A DNA stretch of 64,000 bases from an uncultured Candidatus Rokubacteria bacterium (GTDB taxonomy: Bacteria; Methylomirabilota; Methylomirabilia; Rokubacteriales; DASRDR01). The stretch spans positions 288,001-352,000 of the forward strand of contig CAVPSB010000002.1 in the NCBI GenBank assembly GCA_963708025.1, given 5' to 3'. This document shows positions 2,899-18,130 of the stretch, one piece after another. A program made the translations under genes and the position numbers. The notes below the pieces were generated by a model. That model ran no database searches. It saw only the letters and a program-made list of their open reading frames with translations, and was not told the origin of the DNA. Positions within the stretch are counted from its first letter, which is position 1. The number at the start of each line of letters is the position of its first letter.

Positions 2899-4113
2899 AT
2901 GAGACTGCATCGACTGGCCGCCTGGGCGTTCGGGCTGGCCCTGGTCGTTCACGCGACGCCGGCCGCCGTGGGCCAGGAGCGACCGCCGCAGCCGTTCGCC
3001 CCCACGTGGGCCAACCTGGCCGGCGCCACCGTCTTCGCCAGCAAGGGGTGCGGGCGGTGCCACGCCATCCGGGGATTCGGGGCGACCGCCGGGCCCGACC
3101 TCAGCCGGATCGAGCAGAAGAGCTTCTTCGACCTGGGCGCCGCGCTCTCGAACCACCTCCGCGGTGTCGCCATCCAGCGCCCCACCTTGACCGCCGAGCA
3201 GGTCACCAGCCTGATCGCGTTCCTGTTCACCCTCCAGTACGCGGACCAGCCGGGCGACCCCCAGGCCGGAGAGCAGCTCTTCACCGCAAAGGGCTGCGTC
3301 CAGTGTCACGAGGTCGGGGGCAAGGGCGGCCGGCTGGGTCCGAGCCTGGACTTCCTCAAGCGCGCCAACTCGCCGGTTCTGATCGCGGCCGCCCTGTGGA
3401 ACCACGGCCCCGAGATGGTGGAGACGCTGAAGGCCGTCGGGATCGAGCGCCCGACCTTCGCCGGCCGGGAGCTGGCCGACATCATCGCCTTCGTCCAGAG
3501 CTCGCCCCGGGAGCCCGGCGCCGAGACGGCCCGGGTCGTGGCTGGAACCCCAGAGCGTGGTGAGAAGCTCGTCGCCGAGAAGCGTTGCCTGGCCTGCCAC
3601 TCCATCGCGGGCAAGGGCGGCAAGGTCGGTCCCGAGCTGGGCCGGCGCCAGCACGTCAGCCTCACGCAGTTCGCGGCGCTGATGTGGAACCACGCCCCGG
3701 GAATGTGGGCCCAGATGGCGGCGCGCGGGGTCCAGGTGCCCCGCATGACCGGTCAGGAGATGGCGGACATCGTGGCCTACCTGTACGCGTCCCATTACTT
3801 CGACCAGCCGGGCGATGCCGGCCGCGGGCAGCAGCTGCTCCAGGTCAAGGGTTGCGCGAGCTGCCACGCGATCCGGGGCACCGGGCCGAAGGTCGGGGCG
3901 GATCTGGCCTCCTATTCCGCGCTCCGCTCCACGGCCGGCCTGGTCGCCGCGCTGTGGAATCACCCGCGGTACCTCGCGGCGCAGCAGCGGGAGGTTCCCT
4001 GGCCGCTGTTGACCGGGCAGGAGCTGTCCGACGTCGCCGCCTACGTGAGCGGACTGCCGAAGGGAGCGACGCCCGGGCCGAAGGGCGCGACTCCCCGGCC
4101 GAAGGGCCCGTAG
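2899..4113 (+). CDS. Periplasmic tetraheme cytochrome c built of four class I-like domains
   Basis: Signal peptide; CGRCH, CVQCH, CLACH, CASCH, each followed by a (W/S)NH motif; start moved to ATG 2899 (GAGGGG RBS). Confidence 0.9.
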   Translation: MRLHRLAAWAFGLALVVHATPAAVGQERPPQPFAPTWANLAGATVFASKGCGRCHAIRGFGATAGPDLSRIEQKSFFDLGAALSNHLRGVAIQRPTLTAEQVTSLIAFLFTLQYADQPGDPQAGEQLFTAKGCVQCHEVGGKGGRLGPSLDFLKRANSPVLIAAALWNHGPEMVETLKAVGIERPTFAGRELADIIAFVQSSPREPGAETARVVAGTPERGEKLVAEKRCLACHSIAGKGGKVGPELGRRQHVSLTQFAALMWNHAPGMWAQMAARGVQVPRMTGQEMADIVAYLYASHYFDQPGDAGRGQQLLQVKGCASCHAIRGTGPKVGADLASYSALRSTAGLVAALWNHPRYLAAQQREVPWPLLTGQELSDVAAYVSGLPKGATPGPKGATPRPKGP

Positions 4114-4236
4114 TCCCGGCGCCGTGCCGGGTGGGGCGCCGCCACCCCACCCGGCTTGGCCGCGTGCCGCCTCGCGCGCGCGCTTCCCGGAGCATTTCCC
4201 CCGTGATTGCTGCCGGTTGCTCCGCTCGGCCACCGG

Positions 4237-4252
4237 TGGCACGACCGTTGCT
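4237..4252 (+). promoter_or_regulatory. Sigma-54 -24/-12 promoter of the cytochrome operon
   Basis: TGGCACGACCGTTGCT, an exact match to TGGCACG-N4-TTGCW, 45 nt upstream of ATG 4298. Confidence 0.85.
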
Positions 4253-4297
4253 GACCTGCACCTCCGACGCTGGATCGACGCCAACGGAGGGGACTTG

Positions 4298-4762
4298 ATG
4301 AGCCGTCAGCGGAACGTGTCGCGCAGTTCGAGGGCCTGGACGTTCTGGTCGCTCGCGGCCCTCACCGCGTTCCTCGCGCTGGGGGCCGGGCTCCTGTGGA
4401 TCCGGACGCCCGAGCCGGCGCCCACCGCCGCCGGGGGCCCGACCGTCTCCGCCGGCGGCCCCGGGAATGCGGTCGCGCGTCGCGAGACGCGACCGACGCT
4501 CGACCCGGCCCGCTTCGTCGGGAAGGCCGCCCGCGCCCACCAGGTGGCGCGGGAGATTCCCGACGTGCTGGACCGGCTCTACTGCTACTGCGAGTGCGAC
4601 CGGAACCTCGGTCACCGGAGCCTGCTCTCCTGCTACACCGACGGCCATGCCGCCACCTGAGGCATCTGCATGGACGAGGCGCTGGATGCGTCTCGCATGG
4701 TGAAGGCGGGGTACCCGGTGGAGCGGATCCGTTCCGAGATCGACCGGACGTACGGCCGATGA
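4298..4762 (+). CDS. PCYCGC/CYCXC-motif membrane-anchored protein, predicted selenoprotein (UGA 4658-4660 = Sec)
   Basis: GGAGG RBS; TM helix; LYCYCECDRNLGHRSLLSCYTDGHAAT-[TGA]-GICMDEALDASRMVKAGYPVERIRSEIDRTYGR*. The TGA sits at the first Cys of the family CxxC. The extended frame ends in an ATGA overlap with the next gene. Confidence 0.85.
4669..4699 (+). promoter_or_regulatory. Candidate bacterial SECIS hairpin
   Basis: CATG-GA-CGAGGCGC[TGGAT]GCGTCTCG-CATG; the loop starts 22 nt after the UGA and has G at position 2. Confidence 0.7.
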
Positions 4763-13319: not shown

Positions 13320-14222
13320 ATGACCGAGCCCGAGGAGGGCCAGGTCCGCCGCCGGCCCCATGCTGACCACCGCCGCCGCCGGCTCGTCCTCGTCGTCCTG
13401 GGCGGGCTCCTCGTCGTGGGAGCCGTCGGGCTGGCCGGACTCTGGCAGGTGAGCGCGAGCCCGCAGTTCTGCAATTCGTGCCACATCATGGAGCCCTACG
13501 TCCAGGCCTGGAAGGTCTCCAAGCACGCCGCCGTCGCCTGCGTCGACTGCCACTATCCCCCCGGCCTCCGGGACACGCTGTGGGTGAAGTACCAGGCGAT
13601 CAGCCAGGTCGCGAAGTGGGCGACCCGGACGTACAGCTCCAAGCCCTTCGCGGAGGTCGAGGACGCGAGCTGCCTCCGCTCGGGCTGCCACGCCCTGGCC
13701 CGGCTCGAGAGCAAGGGCCCCGCCGAGTTCAAGCGCGGCGTGCGGTTCGACCACCGCCCGCATCTGGCCGCGGAGAAGATGGGTCGCGCGCTCCGGTGCA
13801 CGAGCTGCCACTCGCAGATCGTGGTGGAGAAGCACTTCGAGGTGGACCAGCGGAGCTGCTTCCTCTGCCACTTCAAGGGCACGAAGCACGGACGGGAGCT
13901 GACCCCGATCGCCGGCTGCACTGGCTGTCACCAGCCGCCGTCGGGTGACATCCTCGTCGGGTCAATCCGGTTCAACCACCAGGAGGTCGTGGGCCGCGGC
14001 GTCGCCTGCGAGAAGTGCCACCTGCGCGTCGTCGAGGGGGACGGGGAGGCGCCCCGCGAGCGGTGCCTCTCCTGCCACAACCAGCCCGAGAAGCTCCAGC
14101 GCTTCGAGGACCGGGCGCTCGTCCACGCCGTCCACGTCGCGCGCCACACGATCGACTGCAGCCGCTGTCACGGCGAGATCCGGCATCGGCTGCCACCCCC
14201 CATCGGGCTCCCGGCGTCATGA
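13320..14222 (+). CDS. NapC/NirT-like membrane-anchored multiheme cytochrome (8 CxxCH + 1 CX4CH)
   Basis: N-terminal TM helix, SPQFCNSCHIM, CVDCH, CLRSGCH and six further CxxCH. Confidence 0.88.
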   Translation: MTEPEEGQVRRRPHADHRRRRLVLVVLGGLLVVGAVGLAGLWQVSASPQFCNSCHIMEPYVQAWKVSKHAAVACVDCHYPPGLRDTLWVKYQAISQVAKWATRTYSSKPFAEVEDASCLRSGCHALARLESKGPAEFKRGVRFDHRPHLAAEKMGRALRCTSCHSQIVVEKHFEVDQRSCFLCHFKGTKHGRELTPIAGCTGCHQPPSGDILVGSIRFNHQEVVGRGVACEKCHLRVVEGDGEAPRERCLSCHNQPEKLQRFEDRALVHAVHVARHTIDCSRCHGEIRHRLPPPIGLPAS

Positions 14223-15556
14223 GGCCCGCCCCCGCGCTCCTCATCCTGATCCTGCTCGCCGCCGCCAGCTCGATCGGCGCCCAGGGCGTGCGCCCGCCCG
14301 AGCCGCCGGGGGCCCGGACCGGGGCCCCGGCGCCGGCGCCTCCGGCGGCGGTCCACCGCCCCGGCGAGCTCGACTGCCAGAACTGTCATCAGGGCAAGCA
14401 CCAGGGCGTGGTGCGGATGTACCTCGGGATGGGCGGGCGGGGAACGCCCATGATCCCGAGCCACATGGTCCAGGTGCGGGTCGAGTGCGCGGCCTGTCAC
14501 ATCGCGCCGAAGGAAGAGGAGCTCTGGGCCGGCATCGTCGGCCAGACGTTCCGGCCGAGCGAGCAGGCGTGCATCGGCTGCCACGGGGAGAAGTATCGCG
14601 GAATGCTGGGGCGGTGGGCGAGCACGCTGGTCCGGATGCAGGAGCTCCTGGCCCCCAAGCTGGCGGCGGCCCGGGGCGCGGTCGGCGCCGGCGACCCGAA
14701 GGACCCGAAGCGGGTGCGCGCGGGCCGGCTCCTGGACGACGCCGAGTTCAACAGCCGCTTCGTCGCGCTGGCCAGAGGCGTGCACAACGTCTTCTATGCC
14801 GCCGACCTGCTGAAGCTCGCGAACGGCTGGGTCGAGGAAGCGGCCGTGCTGGCGGGCAAGCCGGTCGTCCGGGGCGACGACACGCTCATCCGCGGGGGCT
14901 ACTGCGCCGTCCTCTGCCACGAGCAGGCCGGCGTGAAGCTGAAGGACACGGTCACCTTCGCCGACCGGAAGCTGCCGCACGCCCGGCACACGACGGAGTT
15001 CGGCGCGGTGTGCACGAGCTGTCACTCGGCCGAGGTCCACAAGGCGGTGACCGCCACCCCCGCGGCCTGTACCGCCTGTCACCACGGCCCGCAGAACGAC
15101 CGGTGCGAGGGCTGCCACCGCGCCCAGAGCGCCTTCTACCGGGGCCAGGCGCGCACCGACCACGGGCCCGTCGCGCCGAACCTGATGGCGGAGGCCGTGC
15201 CGTGCACCGGCTGTCACGATCTCGCGCGCAAGCACTCGCGAGCGGCGGTCGGGGAGAGGTGCCGGGCTTGCCACGAGCCGCCCTACCTGGCGCTGCTCGG
15301 CGAGTGGACGGTCGGGTTCGACCGGGACGCCGGGCGGGCGACCGCGGCGCTCCAGCGGGCGGAGGCGGCGCTCGCGAGCGCCCGGAAGGCCGGCCGGCCG
15401 ACCGGCGAGGGGGAGGCGCTCGTGAAGGAGGCCCGGCGGGCGCTGGCCCTCGTCCGCGGCGCCCGGGGCGCCCACAACCCGCTGGCCGCCGACGCGCTGC
15501 TCGAGGGCGCCCGGCAGAAGGCCGAGGCGGCGCTGGCGATGGTGGGACGGAAGTGA
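14219..15556 (+). CDS. Multiheme cytochrome c (8 CxxCH + 1 CX3CH)
   Basis: ATG 14219 overlaps the upstream stop; signal peptide; two heme clusters, each followed by a helical segment with GVHN/GAHN. Confidence 0.87.
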   Translation: MRPAPALLILILLAAASSIGAQGVRPPEPPGARTGAPAPAPPAAVHRPGELDCQNCHQGKHQGVVRMYLGMGGRGTPMIPSHMVQVRVECAACHIAPKEEELWAGIVGQTFRPSEQACIGCHGEKYRGMLGRWASTLVRMQELLAPKLAAARGAVGAGDPKDPKRVRAGRLLDDAEFNSRFVALARGVHNVFYAADLLKLANGWVEEAAVLAGKPVVRGDDTLIRGGYCAVLCHEQAGVKLKDTVTFADRKLPHARHTTEFGAVCTSCHSAEVHKAVTATPAACTACHHGPQNDRCEGCHRAQSAFYRGQARTDHGPVAPNLMAEAVPCTGCHDLARKHSRAAVGERCRACHEPPYLALLGEWTVGFDRDAGRATAALQRAEAALASARKAGRPTGEGEALVKEARRALALVRGARGAHNPLAADALLEGARQKAEAALAMVGRK

Positions 15557-16416
15557 GCCGCCGGCGCCGCGAGGAGCGCGCGCGGCAGGAGGCAGCCCTC
15601 CTCCAGGCGGGGCGCCCGCAGTGGCTGGTCGCCGCGCTGAGCGCGGTCGGGCTGGCGGTCGCCGGGTACCTGGCGGTGACGAAGCTCGCGGGCGGCGGCG
15701 CCCTGTTCTGCCGGGGCGTCGGCGGCTGCGAGGTGGTGCAGCAGAGCCGCTACGCGACCTTCCTGGGGCTGCCCACCGCGGCCTGGGGCGCCTTCGTCTA
15801 CGCGGCCGTCGGGGGCCTGGCCCTCGCCGGCCTCGCCCCCTGGCGCTGGCTCGCGGCCTTCGCGCTGGCGGCGGCGGCCGTCGCCTTCTCCGGCTACCTG
15901 ACCTACCTGGAGCTGTTCGTCATCGGGGCGGTCTGCTGGTACTGCGTGGTGTCGGCGGCGACGGCCACGGCGGTCCTGGGCGTGCTGCTCGGGCGCCGGC
16001 CGCCGAGCGGGCGGCACGGCCCGACCGCGCCGGCCCGGGTCGTGGGGGTGGGAGGGGCGTCGGCGCTGGGCGCCGTGGTGCTCGGCATCGCGGTCTTCGC
16101 CGCGACCGCCCCCGGCGGCGCCCCCGGCTACCAGGAAGCCCTCGCCCGCCACCTCGCCCAGAGCGGCGCGGTCATGTACGGCGCCTTCTGGTGACCCGCC
16201 TGCAAGGAGCAAAAGGCCCGGTTCGGGCCTGCCGCCGACCTCCTCCCCTACGTCGAGTGCGACCCGCGCGGATCCGGGGCGCGGCCCGACCTGTGCCAGC
16301 GCGTCGGCGTCCGCGGCTATCCGACCTGGACGGTCGGCGGGGAGCGCCTCGAAGGCGTCCTGTCCCTCGATCGCCTGGCCGAGCTCTCCCGCTACCAGCC
16401 CCCCGCGGGTCACTGA
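15553..16416 (+). CDS. VKOR-thioredoxin-like fusion, predicted selenoprotein (UGA 16192-16194 = Sec)
   Basis: GTG overlaps the upstream stop. VKOR motifs CRGVGGC..SRYATFLGLP..CWYC, then MYGAFW-[TGA]-PACKEQKARFG..YVECDP..CQRVGVRGYPTW..TGA 16414-16416. The internal TGA replaces the first Cys of WCxxC. Confidence 0.88.
16209..16232 (+). promoter_or_regulatory. Candidate bacterial SECIS hairpin
   Basis: GC-AAA-AGGCCCG[GTT]CGGGCCT-GC; the loop begins with G, 25-26 nt after the UGA. Confidence 0.7.
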
Positions 16417-16526: not shown

Positions 16527-16898
16527 ATGACACGAGGAATCCGTGCGGGAGTCGTCGTGGCCGCCGCCGTTGGCGTGGTGTCCCTGACCGTCGGGTTCGC
16601 GGCCGGCCAGGCCAAGGGGGACGCGAAGGCCGGCGAGCCCGTGTACAAGGCGAAGTGCGTCACCTGTCACGGCGCGGCCGGCAACGGCGACACCCCGGCC
16701 GGGAAGGCGCTGAACCCGAAGCCGCGGGACTGGACGAAGGGCGACGGGCTCGACCTCACCGACCAGCAGCTCTTCGACTCGATCAAGAAGGGGGGCGCGG
16801 CGGTCGGGCGGGGGAAGACGATGATCGCCTTCCCGACCCTGTCGGACACCGAGGTCTGGAATCTCGTCGCCTACGTCAAGTCGCTGAAGAAGTCCTGA
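16527..16898 (+). CDS. Monoheme cytochrome c, close paralog of 7821..8189
   Basis: AAGGAGG RBS; CVTCHGAAG..DWTKG..MIAFP shared with the 7821 gene. Confidence 0.92.
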   Translation: MTRGIRAGVVVAAAVGVVSLTVGFAAGQAKGDAKAGEPVYKAKCVTCHGAAGNGDTPAGKALNPKPRDWTKGDGLDLTDQQLFDSIKKGGAAVGRGKTMIAFPTLSDTEVWNLVAYVKSLKKS

Positions 16899-17071: not shown

Positions 17072-17281
17072 CTACAGCAGTTCCTTGGCGCGGAGGTCCG
17101 CCAGCACCGCACCCGCCAGGAGCGCGAGCGCGACCAGGAAGAGCGCCTGGCCCAGGAACATGAAGATCGTGAAGGCGGTCGGCATGTTCCGCACGAGCAC
17201 GACGAGCGCCATCACGTCGAAGACGGCGGTCAAGAGGATCGCGAGCTGCAGCGCGCGGACGCGGCGTGGCTGTCCGGTCAT
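17072..17281 (-). CDS. Small two-TM membrane protein
   Basis: ATG overlaps the stop of the NapC-like gene (ATGA); two hydrophobic helices. Confidence 0.7.
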   Translation of the reverse strand: MTGQPRRVRALQLAILLTAVFDVMALVVLVRNMPTAFTIFMFLGQALFLVALALLAGAVLADLRAKELL

Positions 17282-17982
17282 CGGGAGGCCGCCTGCTTCG
17301 GCTCCGGATGGGCCGGGGCATGACAGCTCAGACAGGGGATCGTGTCGTTCACCATGTTGGGCACCAGCTCTGTTGGGTGTCCCGGCGAGTTGAGGAACTT
17401 CTGCGAGGCCCCGTGGCAGCCCAGGCAGCGCAGGCTCGGGTAGGGGTGCGCGATCTTGATCGGCAGCGTGTACGAGCCGATCAGGGACCGCCACACGTGA
17501 CCGAGGCCCGCCAGCTTCGCACCGAGCGTCCCCGTGAGCCCGTAGTCGGAATGACACGTGTAGCAGTGCTTGTCCTGGATGTACCGGTTCTTGAAGTGCG
17601 TGGCCGCCAGGGTGGCGCTCTGAGGGTTCCGGAGGTCCGCGACGAAGGGGGTCATGACGTGGCAGCCGCCACACGAGTTGACGGTGGACGAGCTCTCCAG
17701 GCCGGAGGCGAACGACAGGAAGGCCACCATCATGGGAACCAGGCCGACGGCCACCAGGAGCCACCCGCGCGCGGTGGGGGTCAGCCCGGACCGGCGCAGG
17801 GTGCGCCAGGCCACCGCGAGCAGCGCCAGGTTGAAGAGTGCGAAGACGATCCCCAGCCCCTGGAGCCACTGGTCGGTCGTCCCGATCCAGCCGCGGGGGA
17901 GGGGAACGGCGTCCTCGGCCGCGACCGCGGCGAGGGGCGCCAGCAGCACTAGGAAGGGGGCGGCCAGGGCGGTCCCGTTCAT
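17278..17982 (-). CDS. NapC/NirT (CymA-like) tetraheme quinol-interacting cytochrome with extra N-terminal TM helices
   Basis: GGAGGAG RBS, ATG 17982; CGGCHVM, CYTCH, CLGCH, CLSCH after the TM segments. Confidence 0.82.
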   Translation of the reverse strand: MNGTALAAPFLVLLAPLAAVAAEDAVPLPRGWIGTTDQWLQGLGIVFALFNLALLAVAWRTLRRSGLTPTARGWLLVAVGLVPMMVAFLSFASGLESSSTVNSCGGCHVMTPFVADLRNPQSATLAATHFKNRYIQDKHCYTCHSDYGLTGTLGAKLAGLGHVWRSLIGSYTLPIKIAHPYPSLRCLGCHGASQKFLNSPGHPTELVPNMVNDTIPCLSCHAPAHPEPKQAASR

Positions 17983-18101
17983 ACGCGCTCCTCCGGAAGT
18001 TCGATCGGTCCCGGGGATTATGGCGGAGCGGCGGCCGGTCTGGCAACTCCCGGCTCCGCGGCTCCCGGGCCTGGGGGTCCCGGGATAGTGCATTTTCCTC
18101 A

Positions 18102-18130
18102 TTGACGCGCCGGGACCCCGGTCCTAGTAT
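18102..18130 (+). promoter_or_regulatory. Sigma-70-type promoter of the mtrAB-like pair
   Basis: TTGACG-N17-TAGTAT. Confidence 0.6.

Follow-up and report, generated by a model that had tools for sequence, protein, structure and literature searches.

Background

Outside the cytoplasm of bacteria, the disulfide bonds of proteins are generated by enzymes of the VKOR (vitamin K epoxide reductase) and DsbB families, and a human VKOR homolog is the target of warfarin. The DsbA of Escherichia coli carries the motif CPHC, and the His of such a DsbA-type motif tunes the thiolate. The closest described relative of the gene reported here is the fusion of VKOR with a thioredoxin (Trx)-like domain (VKOR-Trx) from Synechococcus sp. 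(PDB 3KP9, 4NV2, 4NV5 and 4NV6; Trx-like domain, 3KP8), in which electrons pass from the substrate to Cys209/Cys212, then to Cys50/Cys56, then to Cys130/Cys133 and finally to the quinone, according to the available text of PMC3800646. We analysed a VKOR-Trx gene at positions 15553 to 16416 (+ strand) of a stretch of 64,000 nucleotides (hereafter, the window; assembly GCA_963708025.1, contig CAVPSB010000002.1, positions 288,001 to 352,000) from an uncultured Candidatus Rokubacteria bacterium of the phylum Methylomirabilota. An in-frame UGA codon of this gene is very probably read as selenocysteine (Sec) in the redox motif of the Trx-like domain.

The window gene and the Synechococcus enzyme have the same architecture, their three redox centres occupy the same alignment columns, and both have the MYGA(Y/F)W strand and the YPTW cis-Pro loop. 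They differ at Cys209, in place of which the window gene has the UGA (putative Sec) codon, with a putative Sec insertion sequence (SECIS) hairpin embedded in the next 40 nucleotides (nt), and in the motif itself, where CPHC is replaced by UPAC and the His is lost. Also unlike the Synechococcus enzyme, the Sec form is coupled to a multihaem cytochrome c gene in one subclade. The DsbB-DsbA pair of E. coli is a functional analogy, as a quinone-linked membrane enzyme reoxidises a periplasmic Trx-fold oxidase (PMC3800646, available text); in contrast to that pair, VKOR belongs to a family different from DsbB, the partners are fused here and the oxidase would carry selenium.

Trx-fold selenoproteins with a UxxC motif are already known, namely Trx (PF00085), DsbA-like form 1 (PF01323), a DsbG-like family (NF041057) and a thiol:disulfide interchange family (PF13098), as given in Table 1 of the available text of PMC13188914. 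They share with the window gene the replacement of the N-terminal Cys of CxxC by Sec, the existence of Cys-form homologs and a bacterial SECIS (bSECIS) element just 3' of the UGA. Whereas they are soluble or lipid-anchored single-domain proteins, the Trx-like domain here is fused to the membrane enzyme that would reoxidise it.

Results and discussion

Structure of the gene

The features of the gene and its product are as follows.

15553 to 16416, + strand: complete VKOR-Trx gene (predicted selenoprotein), with a GTG start, 287 codons including one putative Sec codon, and a terminal TGA at 16414-16416
15622 to 15981, + strand: VKOR domain, amino acids 24-143 (Pfam PF07884; E = 8.5e-26, 91.1 bits against a cut-off of 27.5)
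15709 to 15729, + strand: loop cysteine pair C53/C59 between helices 1 and 2, aligned with Cys50/Cys56 of 3kp9_A
15934 to 15945, + strand: membrane-embedded CWYC active site, C128/C131, aligned with Cys130/Cys133 (next to the quinone) of 3kp9_A
16039 to 16095, + strand: fifth hydrophobic helix, amino acids 163-181 (hydropathy peak 2.19; the matching part of 3kp9_A is aligned)
16138 to 16401, + strand: Trx-like domain, amino acids 196-283 (match to 3kp8_A over query residues 196-283, E = 3.8e-24)
16192 to 16194, + strand: UGA very probably read as Sec (U214), aligned with Synechococcus Cys209 and lying in a column of TGA or Cys codons in the homologs
16214 to 16230, + strand: putative bacterial SECIS hairpin AGGCCCG-GUU-CGGGCCU, with a 7-bp stem, within the codons for K-A-R-F-G-P (-11.9 kcal/mol)

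The TGA lies in the context ...AVMYGAFW-U-PACKEQKARFG... in frame with the GTG at 15553, and 73 codons (PACK...PPAGH) separate it from the second TGA. The public gene call for the locus (P0002) uses the same GTG start, is 100% identical over its 213 amino acids and ends ...MYGAFW. When the UGA is read through, the resulting protein of 287 residues aligns from end to end with Synechococcus 3kp9_A (query 13-283, chain 11-279, E = 7.9e-46), and the columns of U214/C217 are those of Cys209/Cys212, Cys209 being the substrate-facing cysteine. The Trx-like domain has U214-P-A-C217, the conserved C236 and C248 and the YPTW cis-Pro loop, and its scores fall below the Pfam cut-offs for Thioredoxin (17.3 bits against 23.5) and for DSBA (13.1 bits). 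With a fifth transmembrane helix followed by a Trx-like domain that has a CxxC-type motif and a cis-Pro loop, the protein is a VKOR-Trx fusion. The TGA interrupts the Trx fold at a point one residue ahead of the redox motif, with the strand AVMYGAFW in front of it, so that the two halves cannot be separate genes. The region 15553-16416 is a single intact gene for a five-helix membrane VKOR fused to a Trx-like domain.

Hydropathy analysis gave four hydrophobic cores for the VKOR domain (amino acids 25-43, 76-94, 99-117 and 127-145). The N-terminus of the protein is rich in arginine (seven K/R among the first 23 amino acids), and the loop before helix 5 is positively charged (four K/R in amino acids 145-165). 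This positive-inside charge pattern fits a cytoplasmic N-terminus and an external Trx-like domain, and helix 5 would carry the chain back across the membrane to that domain.

The initial annotation of the window had described a gene call that stops at MYGAFW, a frame that runs on for 73 more codons and completes a Trx-like domain after the TGA, and a 7-bp hairpin with a G-initiated loop 25-26 nt after the UGA. All of these agree with our results, the loop G at 16221 being 26 nt from the UGA. It had also cited MYGA(Y/F)WCxHC as the motif of known fusions, and the Synechococcus enzyme indeed has MYGAYWCPHC at this place.

UGA and Cys codons in the same column of homologs

In a first sample of 41 related genomes, eight loci had one TGA inside the match and others had none. 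The main sample comprised 251 genomes of the phylum, 90 of which had a match at E <= 1e-20, and all accessible matches were fetched. The column of U214 was TGA in 48 loci from 47 genomes (G085 has two loci) and TGC or TGT in 38 genomes; that is, it encodes Cys, at the first position of the CxxC redox motif, in 38 of the 38 homologs without TGA. The TGA forms are spread over five family groups (f1, f2, f5, f8 and f10) and have the motifs UPAC (45) and UPVC (3). The motifs of the Cys forms are CPHC (30), CPAC (4), CAHC, CPVC, CSAC and CPRC (one each), so that His occupies the third motif position in 31 of 38 Cys forms and in none of the 48 Sec forms. Thus, homologs have Cys where this gene has its in-frame UGA, and the alignments span the whole protein, so that homology extends to both sides of the codon.

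This count does not take in G241, in which the contig ends before the column, the unpublished genome G074, the partial match of G242 (L106), which starts at residue 214, and the matches of G044, G052 and G057, which cover the VKOR domain only. Homolog rows flagged with one TAG in the phylum search were Cys forms. A search of genome contigs with back-translated patterns gave only Cys forms and distant cyanobacterial, archaeal and CPR (candidate phyla radiation) matches, and was used for two outgroups; note that the patterns were written with Cys codons, and the search was therefore biased against Sec forms.

Some genomes have unusual copies. G072 has a Sec form and a 38%-identical Cys paralog (L075 and L136) and was therefore counted in both classes, and G085 has two TGA-form copies (L065 and L104) on separate short contigs, one of them with a hairpin weakened by a change of GGG to GGC. 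These duplicates may be strain mixtures or true paralogs. In genus g20, two genomes have the Cys-form gene divided between two reading frames near residues 160-170 (L030/L034, G036:C5:257254-258049; L138, G211:C23:146324-147099), which might reflect pseudogenisation by a frameshift or a homopolymer error, the assemblies consisting of few contigs.

The TGA might be a TGC or TGT that was misread or misassembled in this one assembly, and the source assembly (49 contigs, 99.67% complete) does have an estimated contamination of 8.18%. However, TGA stands in the same column of 46 other genomes. Moreover, metagenome contigs from four runs of four independent studies (wetland, soil and sediment) cover 16191-16219, and no variant at 16192-16194 is among the variants listed, while neighbouring synonymous sites do vary, as do the two outer stem positions of the hairpin (16228, C>T; 16230, T>C/G). 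Four contig records bridge the TGA with at least 31 nt on each side; one contig piece is identical over 16085-16297, and another has a single difference over 16150-16411. These contigs are fragments from relatives. In the best run, 0.41 of the sampled words are shared, so that no run can clearly be assigned to the same strain, and the gene is not covered in full by any listed piece. No RNA data set was among the runs listed. The probability of such an error is practically negligible.

Translation beyond the UGA

The TGA could also be a true stop, in which case the locus would encode a VKOR of 213 amino acids without a working Trx domain, and the 73 codons would be the untranslated remnant of a pseudogenised domain. 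Every public gene call reads the codon in this way, and 28 of the 120 clusters listed from the protein database end exactly in ...MYGAFW, the other 92 being full-length CxxC forms. In addition, UGA is otherwise a stop in these genes, since it ends the VKOR-Trx gene, the upstream gene and most of the relatives (among the 46 TGA-form genes with a terminal stop, TGA in 29, TAG in 15 and TAA in 2), and long open frames are cheap in DNA of 72.5% G+C. Against this, the same TGA has been kept in 47 genomes with only 49-70% identity to the query over the whole length. The frame after it is open for 69-78 codons in 46 of the 48 TGA loci and ends where the Cys forms end; in the remaining two, it is cut by a run of N or by a contig end. 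The hallmark residues of the Trx fold are conserved downstream of the UGA (PYVECD, a second Cys, YPTW and EG), and, after skipping 13 SECIS-constrained codons, the mean pN/pS was 0.57 and the median dN/dS 0.40 (1020 of 1035 pairs with unsaturated synonymous sites; both are ratios of nonsynonymous to synonymous change). An untranslated remnant would instead gather frameshifts and stops. Such a stop would also end the protein within the Trx fold, a single residue short of the redox motif, and we regard this explanation as extremely unlikely.

The putative SECIS hairpin

The stem of the putative bSECIS hairpin begins 19 nt after the UGA (pairing A16214-U16230), and its loop (G16221-U-U16223) begins 26 nt after it. 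The available text of PMC13188914 (section 5) describes bSECIS elements as having a loop of 3-9 nt with G in the first two loop positions, an upper stem of 4-16 bp, a distance from UGA to loop of 16-37 nt and a minimum free energy of at most -7.5 kcal/mol. The window hairpin agrees with that description in every respect (loop of 3 nt, GUU; stem of 7 bp; spacing of 26 nt; -11.9 kcal/mol).

No two of the 48 TGA loci have the same 57 nt after the UGA, but 46 of them share an identical GGCCCGGUUCGGG, and the loop is GUU in all 48. Seven of the seven stem pairs are formed in 28 of these loci, six in 19 and five in one. At least six pairs are thus kept in 47 of 48 TGA forms, against at most three in 37 of 38 Cys forms. 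Conservation of third codon positions in the TGA loci is 0.98-1.00 inside the hairpin and 0.35-0.58 in the flanking codons, and the Cys forms vary freely at the hairpin codons. The only recurrent change in the stem is from G-C to G-U, and the bottom pair also varies.

Sec machinery of the source genome

The source genome has a tRNA-Sec gene (76 bits against a cut-off of 47; called SeC with anticodon tca by ARAGORN), which is clustered with selA (512 bits) and selB on contig C32. The best match for selD (L012, G000:C7:91381-92304, + strand, 398 bits) has itself one in-frame TGA, and SelD is therefore probably also a selenoprotein; a second selD-like match (C23:88505-89419) has no such stop. Thus selC, selA, selB and selD were all found.

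Of the 251 genomes sampled from the phylum, 215 were found to have SelA (94 of the 104 that are of high quality), from which Sec use is judged to be close to universal there. This agrees with a remark in the available text of PMC13188914 that a Methylomirabilota metagenome-assembled genome, with 63 predicted selenoprotein genes, has the largest predicted bacterial selenoproteome (citing its reference 66). Among the 47 TGA-form genomes, 43 have SelA, and the other four are 81-95% complete.

These results bear on a further explanation, namely readthrough of the UGA with insertion of a standard amino acid, such as Trp, Cys or Gly, through near-cognate or suppressor decoding, the hairpin acting as a general stimulator of readthrough. 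Comparative data show that the codon is translated and not which residue is inserted, and there is no covariation in the stem that would tie the hairpin to SelB. However, the column has Cys in every homolog without TGA, which is the classic Sec/Cys pair, and the hairpin fits the published bSECIS rules for loop, spacing and energy. The genome has a complete Sec system and other genes of the Sec/Cys type (selD, two DsbA-like genes with UPWC and a PF13798 gene; see below), and the loss of the motif His fits a residue which does not need its pKa to be tuned, as expected from the general chemistry of selenium. We consider readthrough as a standard amino acid very unlikely.

Weighing of the Sec assignment

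We infer the actual insertion of Sec from the conserved UGA/Cys column, the UGA-specific hairpin, the selection downstream and the Sec machinery, and we put the probability that the UGA is recoded as Sec in a gene of the structure described above at about 0.92. The initial annotation had placed Sec in the active site of the Trx domain, and the same evidence from homologs, SECIS, contigs and sel genes supports this interpretation. It had expected that standard annotation would mishandle the gene, which is truncated in public gene models, and had suggested a search for Cys/TGA pairs in this column with homology on both sides, which do occur (48 TGA loci in 47 genomes; Cys in 38 genomes). A check of the SECIS element, which it had also suggested, gave a hairpin that has all the bSECIS properties described in the available text of PMC13188914 and is specific to TGA forms. 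Of the findings that it had said would speak against Sec, TGC or TGT at 16192-16194 is not among the variants listed in the contigs of the four studies, and selABCD are all present.

Several observations weigh against the assignment or against the function that we attach to it. The stretch 16186-16260 is no more stable than its dinucleotide shuffles, 116 of 200 of which fold equally well (z = 0.33), and local folding stability was therefore rejected as an argument standing by itself; a 7-bp GC stem is not rare in DNA of this composition. No compensatory double changes in the stem were seen among the 48 TGA loci, since the stem is nearly invariant, and the support for an RNA structure consequently rests on the frozen synonymous sites and on the contrast between Sec and Cys forms. 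One Cys form, L129, also carries the hairpin, with six of seven pairs. The dN/dS of 0.40 indicates purifying selection that is only moderate, with many synonymous sites near saturation. SelA is so nearly universal in the phylum that its co-occurrence with the TGA forms cannot discriminate, and we rejected this co-occurrence as an argument. A rare variant at the TGA is possible among the 13 less-supported rows beyond those listed. Finally, the catalytic direction (oxidase, isomerase or reductase) is taken from a homolog of about 40% identity and may differ here.

Note that, at 72.5% G+C, long open frames are common, and upstream of the gene the same frame stays open for 763 codons, across a different gene; the open frame by itself is thus not beyond chance. 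It is the comparative evidence from sequences, not the local features, that lifts the finding above chance.

Proposed mechanism

By homology to the Synechococcus enzyme and its electron path, the product would be an extracytoplasmic, selenium-dependent disulfide catalyst. SelB and tRNA-Sec would decode the UGA at 16192-16194, directed by the hairpin at 16214-16230, to give the redox centre U214-P-A-C217. Cysteine pairs of exported substrate proteins would give up electrons to U214/C217, from where the electrons would reach the quinone by way of the loop pair C53/C59 and then C128/C131 in the membrane. In its oxidised state, the Trx-like domain would contain a selenenylsulfide (Se-S) in place of a disulfide, and the selenium, at the exposed position, would take electrons from the substrate and hand them to the VKOR loop.

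A selenolate has a low pKa and is ionised at neutral pH; compared with a thiolate, it reacts faster as a nucleophile, as a leaving group and as an electrophilic centre, and it resists irreversible over-oxidation. The benefit of selenium here is thus presumed to be faster exchange and resistance to over-oxidation. The complete loss of the motif His from the Sec forms fits a residue that needs no pKa tuning.

Candidate thiol oxidases of the source genome

The window gene is the only VKOR of the source genome, and DsbB (PF02600) was not found in this 99.67%-complete genome. Two DSBA-family (PF01323) genes score above the cut-off, and both have a single in-frame TGA, which lies in the motif Y-(V/L)-U-P-W-C-Y; such genes are catalogued as the selenoprotein family 'DsbA-like form 1' in the available text of PMC13188914. 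They are the following.

G000:C31:142025-142594, - strand: DSBA-family UPWC gene with in-frame TGA (L058; PF01323)
G000:C7:84120-84701, - strand: DSBA-family UPWC gene with in-frame TGA (L059; PF01323)

The recognisable thiol-oxidase candidates of the genome (VKOR-Trx and these two) therefore all carry putative Sec codons. With no DsbB and no second VKOR, extracytoplasmic disulfide formation might depend on selenium, and oxidative folding in this widespread soil and sediment phylum may be selenium-dependent.

Evolution of the Sec and Cys forms

We reconstructed a quick IQ-TREE phylogeny from 83 rows and two cyanobacterial outgroups, leaving out the short rows L029, L099 and L104. The tree was midpoint-rooted and 30 of its 82 inner branches were unresolved, so that the order of changes from Cys to Sec and from Sec to Cys is tentative. 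The Sec/Cys label requires at least five changes on the tree, against a mean of 27.7 for shuffled labels, and none of 500 shuffles gave a value as low. Lineages with Cys only lie outside one large clade of 45 Sec and 31 Cys rows. The nested Cys rows form two well-supported CPHC clades (21 and 7 rows) and three single rows, and 28 of the 31 have the motif His.

One of the single rows is L129 (G196:C1:58368-59487), which has CAHC with the codon TGC and the hairpin GGCCCGGUUCGGGUC. It lies inside the Sec clade as sister to the Sec form L079 (95% support). Its position and the hairpin that it has kept make it look like a recent reversion from Sec to Cys with a fossil SECIS.

From this tree, a single replacement of Cys by Sec seems to have occurred close to the base of the main clade, in an ancestor of the C-P-A-C type. 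Several lineages then seem to have reverted to Cys, and three of them, the two CPHC clades and L129 with CAHC, to have gained the His independently, although both steps are tentative.

Position among known selenoproteins

The available text of the 2026 review PMC13188914 calls its 119 families and subfamilies the most comprehensive inventory; neither VKOR nor PF07884 appears in its 119-row Table 1 of prokaryotic selenoproteins, and the terms VKOR, vitamin K and DsbB do not occur in that text. A Sec form of VKOR-Trx is likewise unmentioned in the available parts of a 2022 selenoprotein review and of the deep-Sep main text (supplements outside this scope), and the word "selenocysteine" does not occur in the available text of a 2015 paper on VKOR phylogeny. 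Literature searches that paired VKOR or vitamin K epoxide reductase with selenocysteine or SECIS terms gave nothing relevant among the papers listed, which dealt with eukaryotes or ferroptosis or were otherwise unrelated, although the supplements of surveys could list the gene. NCBIfam has no model for a Sec VKOR-Trx; there are only generic VKOR equivalogs, all below their cut-offs (the best with 50.1 bits against 120). The omission from surveys keyed to domains may be explained by the score of the Trx-like part, which is below the Pfam Thioredoxin cut-off.

VKOR-Trx fusions and UxxC Trx-fold selenoproteins are each known, and their combination is apparently new within the literature searched. 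The gene is apparently a Sec variant of a known enzyme and represents what seems to be an uncatalogued selenoprotein family, common in this soil and sediment phylum. If so, dozens of public gene models truncated at the UGA need correction, and a membrane-integral family would be added to the known prokaryotic selenoproteins. The natural UPAC/CPHC pairs, the apparent reversion with a fossil SECIS and the solved structure of a homolog would make it a tractable system for asking what Sec buys over Cys.

Neighbouring genes and other candidate selenoprotein genes

The VKOR-Trx gene overlaps the stop codon of its upstream neighbour in the letters GTGA, the GTG start at 15553 sharing letters with that stop. 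Three neighbouring genes encode cytochromes.

14015 to 15556, + strand: multihaem cytochrome c gene, about 513 amino acids (Pfam PF14522 and PF14537), upstream
16527 to 16898, + strand: monohaem cytochrome c gene, downstream
17278 to 18102, - strand: NapC/NirT-type tetrahaem cytochrome gene on the opposite strand

A multihaem cytochrome c gene is directly upstream in 12 of the 35 homologous loci with flanking sequence, and all 12 are Sec forms of the subclade nearest to the window gene. In this cytochrome-overlap subclade, the enzyme may serve cytochrome c maturation or electron transfer as a specialised function, or may be linked to one of them electronically. The downstream cytochrome c gene and the NapC/NirT-like gene were rejected as conserved partners, as each was present at 0 of the 35 loci.

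A joint reading can be suggested, in which quinone-linked oxidative folding in the phylum runs through a selenenylsulfide, with a single gain of Sec, reversions accompanied by His, dependence on selenium and the link to cytochromes. We regard this combination as possible but rather doubtful as a whole. If it is true, it would be a natural experiment, with Sec on the one hand and Cys plus His on the other as two ways of building the reactive centre of a DsbA-like oxidase.

We also scanned both strands of the window strictly for UxxC or CxxU motifs followed at the right spacing by a hairpin whose stem has 6 bp or more and whose loop begins with G. The scan gave four sites, including the VKOR-Trx TGA and a member of a known selenoprotein family (PF13798). 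Two other TGA sites, 19719-19717 and 13089-13087 (both - strand), were rejected, since they had no Pfam match and their translations look off-frame. The PF13798 site is a second candidate selenoprotein gene at 4049-4759 (+ strand), with its TGA at 4658-4660, the readthrough ...CYCECD...HAAT-U-GIC-MDEA, a match to PF13798 (PCYCGC; E = 1.2e-9) and an 8-bp hairpin 22 nt after the UGA. According to the available text of PMC13188914, PF13798 corresponds to the known UxxC selenoprotein named 'CYCXC family protein'.

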